Assembly (NCBI RefSeq): GCF_054482595.1
Contig: NZ_CM137008.1
Reading direction: 5' to 3' (one strand)
Length of the DNA stretch: 64,000 bases
Within the stretch, counting starts at the first letter, position 1. The number at the start of each line of letters is the position of its first letter. Of the stretch, positions 25,459 to 30,382 are shown piece by piece. A model generated the notes under the pieces. That model ran no database searches. It was not told the DNA's origin and saw only the letters and a list, made by a program, of their open reading frames with translations. A program made the translations under genes and the position numbers.

Positions 25459-26526
25459 ATGGATAAGAGTAAGCGCCATCTGGCGTGGTGGGTTGTCGGG
25501 TTACTGGCGGTGGTTGCTATCGTGGCGTGGTGGCTGTTGCGCCCGGCAGGTGTGCCGGAAGGCTTTGCCGTCAGCAATGGGCGCATTGAAGCGACGGAAG
25601 TGGATATCGCCAGCAAAATTGCCGGGCGTATCGACACCATTCTGGTGAAAGAAGGCCAGTTTGTTCGCGAAGGCGAAGTGCTGGCGAAGATGGATACTCG
25701 CGTGTTGCAGGAGCAGCGACTGGAAGCCATCGCGCAAATCAAAGAGGCACAAAGCGCCGTTGCCGCCGCGCAGGCTTTGCTGGAGCAACGACAAAGCGAA
25801 ACTCGCGCCGCACAGTCGCTGGTTAATCAACGCCAGGCCGAACTGGACTCCGTGGCTAAACGTCATACGCGTTCCCGCTCGCTCGCCCAACGGGGGGCTA
25901 TTTCTGCGCAACAGCTGGATGACGATCGCGCCGCCGCTGAGAGCGCCAGAGCGGCGCTGGAATCAGCAAAAGCTCAGGTTTCGGCTTCTAAAGCCGCTAT
26001 AGAAGCGGCCCGTACCAATATCATTCAGGCCCAAACTCGTGTCGAAGCGGCACAAGCCACTGAACGGCGCATTGCCGCAGATATCGATGACAGCGAACTG
26101 AAAGCCCCGCGTGACGGACGCGTGCAGTATCGGGTTGCCGAGCCAGGCGAAGTGCTGGCGGCAGGCGGTCGGGTGCTGAATATGGTCGATCTCAGCGACG
26201 TCTATATGACCTTCTTCCTGCCAACCGAACAGGCGGGCACGCTGAAACTGGGCGGTGAAGCCCGGCTGATCCTCGATGCCGCGCCAGATCTGCGTATTCC
26301 TGCAACCATCAGTTTTGTCGCCAGTGTCGCCCAGTTCACGCCAAAAACCGTCGAAACCAGCGATGAACGGCTGAAACTGATGTTCCGCGTCAAAGCGCGT
26401 ATCCCACCGGAATTACTCCAGCAGCATCTGGAATATGTCAAAACGGGCTTGCCGGGCGTAGCGTGGGTGCGGGTGAATGAAGAACTTCCGTGGCCTGACG
26501 ATCTCGTGGTGAGGTTGCCGCAATGA
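25459..26526 (+). CDS. yhiI: HlyD-family membrane fusion (periplasmic adaptor) protein YhiI
   Basis: 355 aa; N-terminal transmembrane anchor then Ala/Gln-rich coiled coil; stop overlaps the rbbA start (ATGA). Confidence 0.9.
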
Positions 26527-29258
26527 CGCATCTGGAACTGGTTCCCGTCCCGCCTGTCGCGCAACTGGCGGGCGTGAGCCAGCATTATGGAAAAACCGTT
26601 GCGCTGAACAATATCACACTCGATATTCCGGCCCGCTGTATGGTCGGGCTGATTGGTCCGGATGGCGTCGGGAAGTCGAGTTTGTTGTCGTTGATTTCCG
26701 GAGCCCGCGTCATTGAGCAGGGCAATGTGATGGTGCTGGGCGGCGATATGCGCGACCCGAAGCATCGCCGCGACGTCTGCCCGCGCATCGCCTGGATGCC
26801 GCAGGGGCTGGGCAAAAACCTCTACCACACCTTGTCGGTGTATGAAAACGTCGATTTTTTCGCTCGCCTGTTCGGTCACGACAAAGCGGAGCGGGAAGTC
26901 CGAATTAATGAGCTGCTGACCAGCACCGGGTTAGCACCGTTTCGCGATCGTCCGGCAGGGAAACTCTCCGGCGGGATGAAGCAAAAACTCGGGCTGTGCT
27001 GCGCGTTAATCCACGACCCGGAACTGTTGATTCTTGATGAGCCTACGACGGGGGTTGACCCGCTCTCCCGCGCCCAGTTCTGGGATCTGATCGACAGTAT
27101 TCGCCAACGGCAGAGCAATATGAGCGTTCTGGTCGCCACCGCCTACATGGAAGAGGCGGAACGCTTCGACTGGTTGGTGGCGATGAATGCCGGAGAAGTG
27201 CTGGCAACCGGCAGCGCCGAAGAGTTGCGGCAGCAAACGCAAAGTGCCACGCTGGAAGAGGCGTTTATAAATCTGTTACCGCAAGCGCAACGCCAGGCGC
27301 ATCAGGCGGTAGTGATCCCACCATATCAACCTGAAAACGCAGAGATTGCCATCGAAGCGCGCGATCTGACCATGCGTTTTGGTTCCTTCGTTGCCGTTGA
27401 TCACGTTAATTTCCGCATTCCACGCGGGGAGATTTTTGGTTTTCTTGGTTCGAACGGCTGCGGTAAATCCACCACCATGAAAATGCTCACCGGACTGCTG
27501 CCCGCCAGCGAAGGTGAGGCGTGGCTGTTCGGGCAACCGGTTGATCCAAAAGATATCGATACCCGCCGTCGGGTGGGCTATATGTCGCAGGCGTTTTCGC
27601 TCTATAACGAACTCACCGTGCGGCAAAACCTGGAGTTACATGCCCGTTTGTTTCACATCCCGGAAGCGGAAATTCCCGCGCGAGTGGCTGAAATGAGCGA
27701 GCGTTTTAAGCTCAACGACGTTGAAGATGTTCTGCCGGAGTCATTGCCGCTCGGCATTCGCCAGCGGCTTTCGCTGGCGGTGGCGGTGATTCATCGCCCG
27801 GAAATGTTAATCCTCGATGAGCCTACTTCTGGCGTCGATCCGGTGGCGAGGGATATGTTCTGGCAGTTGATGGTCGATCTCTCGCGCCAGGACAAAGTGA
27901 CCATTTTCATCTCCACCCACTTTATGAACGAAGCGGAACGTTGCGACCGTATCTCACTGATGCACGCCGGAAAAGTGCTCGCCAGCGGTACACCGCAGGA
28001 ACTGGTTGAGAAACGCGGAGCCGCCAGTCTGGAAGAGGCATTTATCGCCTATTTGCAGGAAGCGGCAGGACAGAGCAACGAAGCCGAAGCGCCTCCCGTG
28101 ATACACGATGCTACACACGCGCCGCGCCAGGGATTTAGCCTGCGCCGTCTGTTTAGCTACAGCCGGCGCGAAGCACTGGAATTGCGCCGCGATCCGGTCC
28201 GTTCGACGCTGGCGCTGATGGGAACGGTGATCCTGATGCTGATAATGGGTTACGGCATCAGTATGGATGTGGAAAACCTGCGCTTTGCGGTGCTCGACCG
28301 CGACCAGACCGTCAGTAGTCAGGCGTGGACGCTCAACCTCTCCGGTTCCCGTTACTTTATCGAACAGCCGCCGCTTACCAGTTATGACGAGCTTGATCGT
28401 CGGATGCGTGCGGGCGATATCACGGTGGCAATTGAGATCCCTCCAAATTTCGGGCGTGATATCGCGCGTGGTACGCCTGTGGAACTCGGCGTCTGGATCG
28501 ACGGAGCGATGCCCAGTCGTGCCGAAACGGTAAAAGGTTACGTGCAGGCTATGCACCAGAGCTGGCTACAGGATGTGGCGAGCCGACAATCCACACCCTC
28601 CAGCCAAAGCGGGCTGATGAACATTGAGACGCGCTATCGCTATAACCCGGACGTAAAAAGCCTGCCAGCGATTGTTCCGGCGGTGATCCCGCTTCTGCTG
28701 ATGATGATCCCGTCAATGCTAAGCGCCCTTAGTGTGGTGCGGGAAAAAGAACTAGGGTCGATTATCAACCTTTACGTGACTCCCACCACCCGTAGCGAAT
28801 TTTTGCTTGGCAAACAGCTACCGTACATCGCGCTGGGGATGCTGAACTTTTTCCTGCTCTGCGGTCTGTCGGTGTTTGTGTTTGGCGTACCGCATAAAGG
28901 CAGTTTCCTGACGCTCACCCTGGCGGCGCTGCTGTATATCATCATCGCCACCGGAATGGGGCTGCTGATCTCCACCTTTATGAAAAGCCAGATTGCCGCC
29001 ATTTTCGGTACGGCGATTATCACGTTAATCCCGGCGACACAGTTTTCCGGGATGATCGATCCGGTAGCTTCGCTGGAAGGTCCAGGACGTTGGATCGGCG
29101 AGGTTTACCCGACCAGTCATTTTCTGACTATCGCCCGCGGAACGTTCTCGAAAGCGTTGGATCTGACTGATTTATGGCAACTTTTTATCCCGTTGCTGAT
29201 AGCCATACCGCTGGTGATGGGCTTAAGCATCCTGCTGCTGAAAAAACAGGAGGGATGA
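26523..29258 (+). CDS. rbbA: Ribosome-associated ATPase RbbA (tandem ABC ATPase domains fused to an ABC-2 permease domain)
   Basis: 911 aa; two Walker A motifs ([18 protein letters not shown]), two LSGG signatures, C-terminal multi-transmembrane domain. Confidence 0.93.
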
Positions 29259-30382
29259 TGCGCCATTTACGCAATATTTTTAATCTGGGTATCAAAGAGT
29301 TGCGCAGTCTACTCGGTGATAAAGCGATGCTGACATTGATTGTCTTCTCGTTTACGGTGTCGGTGTATTCGTCAGCGACCGTCACGCCAGGATCGTTGAA
29401 CCTGGCACCGATCGCCATTGCCGATATGGATCAATCGCAGTTATCGAACCGGATCGTTAACAGCTTCTATCGCCCGTGGTTTTTGCCACCGGAGATGATC
29501 ACCGCCGATGAGATGGATGCCGGACTGGACGCCGGGCGTTATACCTTTGCGATAAATATTCCGCCTAATTTTCAGCGTGATGTCCTCGCCGGATGCCAGC
29601 CAGATATTCAGGTGAACGTCGATGCCACGCGCATGAGCCAGGCATTTACCGGCAATGGGTATATCCAGAATATTATCAACGGTGAAGTGAACAGCTTTGT
29701 CGCGCGCTACCGTGATAACAGCGAACCGTTGGTATCGCTGGAAACCCGGATGCGCTTTAACCCGAACCTCGATCCCGCGTGGTTTGGCGGGGTGATGGCG
29801 ATCATCAACAACATTACCATGCTGGCGATTGTATTGACCGGATCGGCGCTGATCCGCGAGCGTGAACACGGCACAGTGGAACATTTACTGGTGATGCCGA
29901 TAACGCCGTTTGAGATCATGATGGCTAAGGTCTGGTCGATGGGGCTGGTGGTGCTGGTGGTATCGGGATTATCGCTGGTGCTGATGGTGAAAGGCGTGCT
30001 GGGCGTACCGATTGAAGGCTCGATCCCGCTGTTTATGCTGGGCGTGGCGCTCAGTCTGTTTGCCACCACGTCAATCGGCATTTTTATGGGGACGATAGCG
30101 CGTTCAATGCCGCAACTGGGGCTGCTGGTGATTCTGGTGCTGCTGCCGCTGCAAATGCTTTCCGGTGGCTCCACGCCGCGCGAAAGTATGCCGCAGATGG
30201 TGCAGGACATTATGCTGACCATGCCGACGACACACTTTGTTAGCCTCGCGCAGGCCATTCTCTACCGGGGTGCCGGATTCGAAATCGTCTGGCCGCAGTT
30301 CCTGACGCTGATGGCAATTGGCGGCGCGTTTTTCACCATTGCGCTGCTGCGATTCAGGAAGACGATTGGGACAATGGCGTGA
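29255..30382 (+). CDS. yhhJ: ABC-2 type transporter permease YhhJ
   Basis: ~375 aa membrane protein; tandem ATG ATG start overlapping the rbbA stop; the longer ORF-track start at 29174 was rejected. Confidence 0.88.

Follow-up and report, generated by a model that had tools for sequence, protein, structure and literature searches.

The yhiI-rbbA-yhhJ operon of Escherichia coli: a probable adaptor-dependent type V ABC exporter related to YbhGFSR, preceded by a conserved leader that carries the yhiY upstream ORF

The DNA analysed here, hereafter the window, is a 64,000-nucleotide (nt) stretch of the Escherichia coli chromosome (RefSeq assembly GCF_054482595.1, contig NZ_CM137008.1), in which the genes yhiI, rbbA and yhhJ occupy positions 25459-30382. 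An earlier note on this DNA, made from the sequence, had recognized in them a membrane-fusion protein, a fused ATP-binding cassette (ABC) ATPase-permease and an ABC-2 permease, and these identities were borne out by the open reading frames (ORFs) found there, by the RefSeq names and by the Pfam domains. Several complete genomes match bases 25300-30500 with 100% identity. Among 5426 complete E. coli genomes, 5413 carry this region with an identity of at least 95%, and in every case it is chromosomal. yhiI-rbbA-yhhJ is an already known and annotated core locus of E. coli, listed as an operon in the published FlhDC table from genomic systematic evolution of ligands by exponential enrichment (gSELEX), and there is nothing new in the operon as such. 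Three points deserve to be kept: the apparently family-wide single-active-site architecture of the transporter, its assignment to type V (not MacB, not ABC-F) and the conserved yhiY leader. The three genes are the following.

25459-26526, plus strand: yhiI, 355 residues (ORF list, RefSeq, Pfam)
26523-29258, plus strand: rbbA, 911 residues (ORF list, RefSeq, Pfam, NCBIfam)
29258-30382, plus strand: yhhJ, 374 residues (RefSeq start at 29258; starts at 29174, 29255 and 29258 in the ORF list)

YhiI matches the Pfam domains HlyD_3, HlyD_D23 and Biotin_lipoyl_2 and, by these domains, is a membrane-fusion (periplasmic adaptor) protein of the HlyD family. Hydropathy places a single N-terminal transmembrane (TM) segment at residues ~6-33, and an Ala/Gln-rich stretch (residues ~85-200) reads as a probable coiled coil. 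The best curated model is the YbhG-type PRK03598, with 162 bits, below the equivalog cut-off of 393, and similarity to MacA and EmrA is weak. In RbbA, two ABC_tran domains (PF00005) are followed by ABC2_membrane_3 (residues 569-903), in agreement with the duplicated nucleotide-binding domains (NBDs) and permease domain described before, and the protein scores 1596.9 bits against the NCBIfam equivalog NF033858 (cut-off 1050), covering profile positions 1-908 of 909. Its layout, on the plus strand, is as follows.

26556-27272, residues ~12-250: NBD1
between NBD1 and NBD2, ~25 residues: inter-NBD linker
27348-28052, residues ~276-510: NBD2
28140-29255, residues ~540-911: ABC-2 permease domain

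The permease domain of RbbA is predicted to consist of TM1, an extracytoplasmic loop of ~125 residues and five further TM segments, and YhhJ has the same topology with an extracytoplasmic domain of ~130 residues. Both exceed the PF12698 gathering score of 31.6 (136.4 bits for RbbA, 115.4 bits for YhhJ) and they align end to end; judged from this relationship, YhhJ is a paralogue of the RbbA permease domain.

YhhJ was modelled with AlphaFold from 62 homologues, and the model had a mean predicted local distance difference test score (pLDDT) of 78. When it was compared with known structures by Foldseek, ABCH-9C matched over the full length (E 2e-11), followed by weaker matches to NosY (4e-5), ABCA3 (5e-4) and ABCG25 (7e-4), and also to ABCA1/4/7, PmtCD and KpsM. 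MacB was not among the Foldseek matches, and there was no Pfam match of the FtsX/MacB type in the operon proteins. As modelled for YhhJ, the permease fold is type V (ABC-2; ABCH/ABCA/NosY-like) and not that of MacB. The operon shares this fold with the type V exporters ABCH-9C, NosFY, ABCA1/3/4/7, ABCG and KpsMT-KpsE, and, as in YhhJ, ABCH and ABCA proteins have an extracytoplasmic domain between TM1 and TM2. The NBDs of RbbA are likewise closest by sequence to the exporter ATPases DrrA/NodI/ABCA. Unlike the solved type V exporters, however, to which identity is only 9-21%, this system would combine a fused and a free permease as a heterodimer and work with a HlyD-type adaptor. The latter feature recalls the type VII system MacAB-TolC, also an ABC transporter with a HlyD-family adaptor, but the operon has neither a four-helix permease of the FtsX/MacB kind nor the periplasmic domain of MacB.

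The closest known system is YbhGFSR of E. coli (ybhG-ybhF-ybhS-ybhR, regulated by CecR), which comprises an adaptor, a tandem-NBD ATPase and two ABC-2 permeases encoded in the same order. Identities are 30% between YhiI and YbhG, 40-41% between the NBDs of RbbA and YbhF, 32% between the RbbA permease domain and YbhS, and 24-26% between YhhJ and YbhR/YbhS. Because of these subunit identities and the domain order, RbbA corresponds to YbhF fused to YbhS, and by the same comparison the trio is a paralogue of YbhGFSR. Two differences stand out: in the present system ATPase and first permease form one chain, and the yhiI operon has no adjacent TetR-type regulator, its control apparently depending on a leader with an upstream ORF (uORF) and on Rho. 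The junctions of the ybh genes overlap by 8 and 8 nt and are then separated by 10 nt. One major review places YbhFSR in the MacB/FtsX family and takes ybhF for the adaptor gene (PMC8277102), and the YbhFSR paper once names the regulator "YhiH", which is the old name of rbbA (PMC7190983). The domains and fold found in this analysis disagree with both papers on these points; since nothing in the fold search resembles MacB, the placement of YbhFSR in that family is not borne out.

For the comparison of loci each species was represented by one genome, and junctions were analysed in 80 loci, a set that spans Enterobacterales to Pseudomonas, methanotrophs, Nitrosomonas, Pandoraea, Deltaproteobacteria, Planctomycetaceae and Dadabacteria. 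The trio is kept as a unit in these 80 species, with the adaptor gene preceding the transporter in all 80 loci, and the order adaptor, NBD-NBD-permease, permease persists at 36-59% identity amid entirely different flanking genes.

The two NBDs of RbbA are not equivalent. NBD1 has Walker A and Walker B motifs and a perfect LSGGM signature, and its H-loop (ATAY) has no His; NBD2 has Walker A, Walker B and the H-loop His, with LPLGI as signature. In ABC transporters each ATP site is composed of the Walker and H-loop motifs of one NBD plus the signature of the other, and because each site combines motifs of both NBDs, one site of RbbA comes out canonical and the other doubly degenerate. The canonical site is predicted to be formed by Walker A/B and the H-loop His of NBD2 with LSGGM of NBD1, and the degenerate one by the Walker motifs and His-less H-loop of NBD1 with the LPLGI signature of NBD2. 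The asymmetry extends to 150 RbbA-family representatives (clustering threshold, 50% identity). At the H-loop position of NBD1, 61 of 111 have Ala, 25 Ser and 17 Pro, and essentially none has His; NBD2 retains the H-loop His in 122 of 126. The signature of NBD2 contains Pro in 106 of 121, and that of NBD1 is LSGGM in ~100%. YbhF has the same pattern (STSY and LPLGF). It is reasonable to suppose, from these motifs, that ATP is probably hydrolysed at one site only.

Taken as one unit, yhiY-yhiI-rbbA-yhhJ probably encodes an adaptor-dependent type V ABC exporter, a paralogue of YbhGFSR, so that the adaptor-bearing ABC export system proposed before is supported by the HlyD adaptor, the NBD-NBD-permease protein, the second ABC-2 permease and the conservation of the trio beyond E. 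coli. From its domains and paralogy, RbbA would contribute both NBDs and one permease half and YhhJ the other half, together making one asymmetric transporter. YhiI, anchored by its single TM helix, would form a periplasmic conduit on the extracytoplasmic domains of both permease halves and might dock to an outer-membrane factor, which in E. coli would be TolC. A TolC-family (OEP) gene directly adjoins the trio in two distant homologous loci (L007 and L008 of the comparative set), and this supports a role in export across the envelope.

Several observations pull the other way. Sequence searches of the PDB found no structure for any of the three proteins or for their Ybh paralogues, there is no outer-membrane-factor gene near the E. 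coli operon, and in the literature we found no transport assay, substrate, TolC dependence or complex structure for the trio. Both the older biochemical literature and a 2025 paper on truncated RbbA report effects on the ribosome, which are considered below. The single transcription unit is presumed from database operon calls and from the finding that no promoter and terminator matches within the operon rise above chance level. Papers on FlhDC gSELEX, on paraquat evolution and on a microcin genome-wide association study name genes of the operon and are otherwise uninformative about it.

The alternative that survives best keeps the transporter and changes its task: an envelope machine for lipids or glycolipids, independent of TolC, that would pass a hydrophobic molecule from the inner membrane through YhiI to the periplasm or outer membrane and take no part in drug efflux. 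The nearest solved folds to the YhhJ model do move lipids and other hydrophobic molecules, the best matches being type V proteins with such cargo (ABCH-9C, which handles ceramide, and ABCA1/3/4/7), and the lack of an outer-membrane-factor gene at the E. coli locus agrees with this possibility. However, the TolC-family genes beside the trio in the two distant loci speak for an outer-membrane exit, YbhGFSR has been reported to affect susceptibility to tetracycline, cefoperazone and chloramphenicol with TolC use proposed, and the present evidence identifies no lipid cargo. We regard a TolC-free lipid machine as rather unlikely, and return to the adaptor-dependent exporter for the way in which its subunits are made.

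The two internal junctions have these positions.

26523-26526, plus strand: junction 1, gcaATGAcg, a 4-nt overlap of the yhiI stop with the rbbA start
29248-29260, plus strand: junction 2, AGGAGG followed by G-ATGATG, with the rbbA stop TGA at 29256-29258 and the yhhJ ATG at 29258

At junction 2, which reads GGAGGGATGATG, two in-frame starts are available to yhhJ, one at 29255 (ATGA, 4-nt overlap) and one at 29258 (TGATG, 1-nt overlap), and before the start the yhhJ frame stays open over 84 nt (29174-29260). The Shine-Dalgarno sequence AGGAGG (29248-29253), which doubles as the Q-E-G codons of RbbA, lies 4 nt from the start at 29258 and only 1 nt from that at 29255. Klebsiella and Salmonella have GGGATAATG or GGGGTAATG at this place, where solely the 29258-type start is available, and since RefSeq also uses 29258, the conserved form of junction 2 is the 1-nt overlap. 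Spacing, annotation and the Klebsiella and Salmonella sequences all favour 29258 over 29255 as the start of yhhJ.

The earlier note had counted three ATGA-type junctions. Junction 1 is indeed of this type, but the feature has only two internal junctions and the second is effectively TGATG; the third ATGA lies outside the feature, since it is the overlap of hicA and hicB (30727-30730), 72 nt separating yhhJ from hicA. The note's tight translational coupling has support in the sequence. Stops and starts overlap or abut, and the ribosome-binding site of the downstream gene is inside the upstream one, as in a translationally coupled operon. The 4-nt [A/G]TGA overlap of junction 1 is kept in 61 of the 80 species loci, the gap at junction 2 measures -4 to +6 nt in 72 of 76 yhhJ-containing loci and +16 to +83 nt in the remaining four, with 75 of the 76 falling between -4 and +16 nt, and everywhere among the analysed loci the final rbbA codons, AACAGGAG, serve as the yhhJ ribosome-binding site as well. 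Because the overlaps and the Shine-Dalgarno sequence within the rbbA end are conserved across species, packing for coupled expression is a reasonable inference, and translation of the subunits would be linked through the overlapping or abutting codons and the last codons of rbbA. It is also an unremarkable one. The annotation of the first 50 kb of the window has 37 neighbouring pairs on the same strand, and 16 of these overlap, eight of them by 4 nt and four by 1 nt, so that the overlaps are not beyond chance and are typical of operons within the same window. In some 10 rare E. coli assemblies, frameshifts close to the 3' end of rbbA join RbbA and YhhJ in a single chain of 1283-1286 residues, a full transporter with two NBDs followed by two TM domains; these may be real alleles or sequencing errors.

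The note had missed the 5' end of the operon, which comprises a promoter-like site, a uORF and a structured leader at 25098-25458; the first two are given here.

25098-25125, plus strand: sigma-70-type promoter-like site, TAGACA, 16 nt, TACTAT, with TG
25283-25396, plus strand: yhiY (RefSeq), 37-residue uORF MMTTLLPVFTKPSPLALNALRAGRICRFLLIPDGIIR, stop codon at 25394-25396

The promoter-like site is conserved in other Enterobacteriaceae as TAGACA-N17-TGTTAGTAT. The primer used by Adams et al. to clone the 5' untranslated region (UTR) begins at window position 25131, and transcription would start near this position; the site and the primer together give a 5' UTR of ~328 nt. In the window strain and K-12, ~100 nt (25126-25226) lie between the promoter and a conserved block described below, which in other Escherichia lineages and other genera, devoid of these ~100 nt, begins ~25 nt after the -10 element. 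The full upstream query matched in 4282 of 5412 E. coli genomes, and the rest match only from ~25227-25299 onward.

Published ribosome profiling shows that yhiY is translated, and YhiY has been detected by mass spectrometry at ~1000-3000 copies per cell. Adams et al. list yhiY-yhiI among uncharacterised uORF candidates, without studying it. According to their supplement, RNA 3' ends occur 65 and 43 nt upstream of yhiI, the one at -43 being flagged as Rho-dependent, and a bicyclomycin-sensitive site lies 547 nt into yhiI; their yhiI reporter was more than 2-fold higher in rho R66S. With coordinates checked against K-12, the published 3' ends fall at window positions 25394 and 25416, the former coinciding with the first nucleotide of the stop codon of yhiY. 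The only stretch of the leader in which C exceeds G, as in rut sites, lies within the yhiY coding region, the C/G ratio reaching 1.8 solely within 25260-25400. Three elements of a uORF/Rho-dependent attenuator are thus present: a translated uORF, Rho-dependent 3' ends and a C-rich, G-poor loading region.

A uORF starting with MMTT is found in seven genera (MTT in Kluyvera), and beyond the first ~8 residues the peptide is not conserved: the Citrobacter freundii group and Escherichia sp. E1V33 have a frameshift in yhiY, Kluyvera has a uORF of three codons, and Klebsiella has one of 78-98 residues that runs into yhiI. Because the MMTT start is conserved and the remaining peptide is not, it seems to be the act of translating yhiY rather than its product that is kept. 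YhiY belongs to no family in NCBIfam. A conserved arrest peptide was considered and rejected, given that the C-terminal "FLLIPDG" likeness is one of nucleotides and that frame and length vary across genera; an intrinsic terminator after yhiY was also rejected, because the hairpin holding the stop codon is not followed by a U run. A second small ORF, at 25246-25314 (22 residues, MSMRVSFTARNADDDNITTRFH), overlaps the invariant block in a frame different from that of yhiY, and akin ORFs (MRVSFTAR...) occur in Kluyvera; we found no evidence of translation. The Proteus spp. (L036, L038-L042 and L071) have no MMTT uORF, and an ORF present there, MAKGRLNNLYEKSKKESFFCL, extends from about -28 to +37 of the aligned start of the yhiI homologue and overlaps the inferred start, which may mean a different leader ORF or a different true start of yhiI.

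A block of ~55 nt (25250-25305), which spans the sequence upstream of yhiY, its Shine-Dalgarno sequence, its start and its first ~8 codons, is nearly invariant in Escherichia, Citrobacter, Pseudocitrobacter, Salmonella, Kluyvera, Klebsiella and Raoultella. RNAalifold applied to 16 leaders gave a consensus structure with the following helices, all on the plus strand.

25252-25263 (AUGCGUGUUUCA) with 25415-25426 (UGUAACACGCGU): P1, long-range, encloses the uORF
25269-25275 (GGCCAGG) with 25346-25352: P2, pairs the yhiY Shine-Dalgarno sequence
25284-25288 with 25293-25297: P3, small hairpin over the start codons
25363-25371 (UUUCCUUCU) with 25378-25386 (GGAUGGAAU): P5, hairpin in the 3' end of yhiY
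25390-25398 (CCGCUGAAC) with 25402-25410 (GUUCGGCGG): P6, hairpin holding the yhiY stop codon

In the consensus structure 97% of the alignment cells are paired, versus 34-43% when the partners are slid, the covariation score exceeds that of all 500 shuffles, and 13 cells are changed on both sides. The closing pair of P5 covaries (AU in 7, UA in 4 and UG in 3). P1 is also found in the Kluyvera/Klebsiella group and stands at a fixed distance from yhiI in 19 taxa, its 3' arm always lying 43-45 nt before the yhiI ATG, with an enclosed distance of 125-231 nt. Changes in this arm are A/G substitutions opposite U, which keep the pairing, together with one C-G compensation.

These results suggest that the leader (~25250-25430) may be an undescribed cis-regulatory RNA, in which the conserved helix P1 encloses yhiY and the competition between the fold, the ribosome and Rho decides expression of the exporter; we hold this tentatively, giving it slightly less than an even chance. 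The promoter at ~25098-25125 would drive the 328-nt leader, in which yhiY is translated, and Rho ends most transcripts at ~25394-25416 and inside yhiI, as published work has shown. Ribosomes on yhiY would cover the only C-rich, G-poor stretch and compete with the fold that encloses the uORF and pairs its Shine-Dalgarno sequence and start, so that yhiY translation would probably set the read-through into the pump genes. The leader could possibly respond to a signal such as a pump substrate or translation stress.

The analysis of the leader has its own weaknesses. The consensus was derived from the same 16 sequences on which the pairs were counted. When P1 was tested by itself, pairing was far above the slid controls and the shuffle test was not significant, because the 5' arm of P1 never varies. 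The single-sequence fold of the leader is no stabler than shuffles (z = -0.45), and the structural claim is therefore a comparative one only. An Rfam search of 24500-31500 gave no match at E of 1 or below, and the match in a riboswitch-entropy list lies 6.6 kb away and says nothing about the operon.

The leader resembles the uORF/Rho attenuators of transporter operons described by Adams et al., of which mdtU-mdtJI is an example, in having a translated uORF within a long 5' UTR, a transporter behind it and Rho-dependent 3' ends shortly downstream of the uORF. It differs from that class in that the yhiY peptide is conserved only in its first residues, a long-range helix encloses yhiY, and Rfam holds no match.

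The conserved block could instead be a DNA operator for a transcription factor, yhiY being incidental or encoding an independently functional small protein. The block is indeed invariant in sequence beyond what pairing alone demands, and the abundance of YhiY would suit a protein with a function of its own. However, a promoter-block spacing that differs by ~100 nt between the K-12/window lineage and the others (~25 nt) does not sit easily with an operator that controls the promoter, the 3' partner of the block, which stands at a constant distance from yhiI, has substitutions that preserve the pairing, and the peptide past its first ~8 residues is frameshifted, reduced to MTT or extended to 78-98 residues depending on the taxon. 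An operator consequently appears improbable to us. In the leader RNA as proposed, whatever relieves Rho-dependent termination is likely to be the physiological inducer of the pump and may point to its cargo, which makes the conserved yhiY leader the most promising route to the exported molecule and the part of the locus worth following up.

RbbA is still named a ribosome-associated ATPase, even though one key paper has been retracted. The name stems from biochemical work on a ribosome-stimulated ATPase, and binding to the ribosomal E site was claimed in older work of the naming group, taken here as it is cited in PMC12096078. RbbA would accordingly be, in the first place, a ribosome-bound ATPase or elongation factor that acts at the E site to release deacyl-tRNA, its membrane domain and neighbours being secondary. 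Besides this older work, the RefSeq name ("ribosome-associated ATPase/putative transporter") points in that direction, as does a 2025 in-vitro translation study in which RbbA truncated of its membrane domain gave 0.6- to 2.1-fold peptide yields; these effects, however, are small and were obtained with a non-native, truncated protein, and the 2011 paper on the cellular role was retracted in 2025. The ABC-F factors (EttA, Uup, YbiT, YheS) are comparable in having two tandem NBDs in one chain and in the E-site binding claimed in the literature. In contrast to these soluble proteins, RbbA has an ABC-2 permease at residues ~540-911, and such a domain is present in every full-length family member; its NBDs are nearest to those of the DrrA/NodI/ABCA exporters, and the ABC-F linker PF12848 was not found by Pfam at E of 0.001 or below, the linker between the NBDs being only ~25 residues long. 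Moreover, rbbA lies between the genes of an adaptor and a second permease, an RbbA-mCherry fusion is spread over the membrane (PMC6788730), and the viable reduced-genome strain DGF-298 lacks the whole operon. A primary role on the ribosome is in our judgement very improbable; sequence, fold, context and localisation favour a YbhGFSR-like exporter over a ribosome-bound ATPase.

Finally, the functional linkage with the adjoining DUF4049 pair yhiL/yhiJ or the HicAB toxin-antitoxin module, which the note thought conceivable and for which same-strand adjacency in this strain speaks, is extremely unlikely, given that among 81 loci the DUF4049 genes flank the trio solely in the window and hicAB solely in the window and Escherichia sp. 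E1V33, that K-12 has yhhI/rhsB in place of hicAB and a yhiL pseudogene, that the G+C content of yhiL/yhiJ is 33-38% versus 55-60% for the operon, and that the promoter-like site of the operon lies downstream of yhiJ while hicAB has one of its own. The latter features are as follows.

30394-30421, plus strand: hicAB promoter-like site, TTGACT, 16 nt, TACTAT, 12 nt after the yhhJ stop
30455-30730, plus strand: hicA
30727-31086, plus strand: hicB, overlapping hicA by ATGA

The hicAB promoter-like site is embedded in the repeats GATGTCATA / GATGTCATA / GAAGTCATA, which may be an operator. On the other side, intact DUF4049 genes occupy 21515-25093, a yhiL-like gene (RefSeq 21599-23209) and yhiJ (23471-25093), with 33.6% mutual identity; this stretch gives the impression of an AT-rich accessory island next to the core operon. 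Beyond hicAB, a minus-strand sugar-utilisation cluster (32028-36745) encodes a class II aldolase, an HPr-like protein, an FGGY kinase, the IIC, IIB and IIA components of a galactitol-type phosphotransferase system and a GntR regulator, and it is absent between yhhJ and nikR in K-12.

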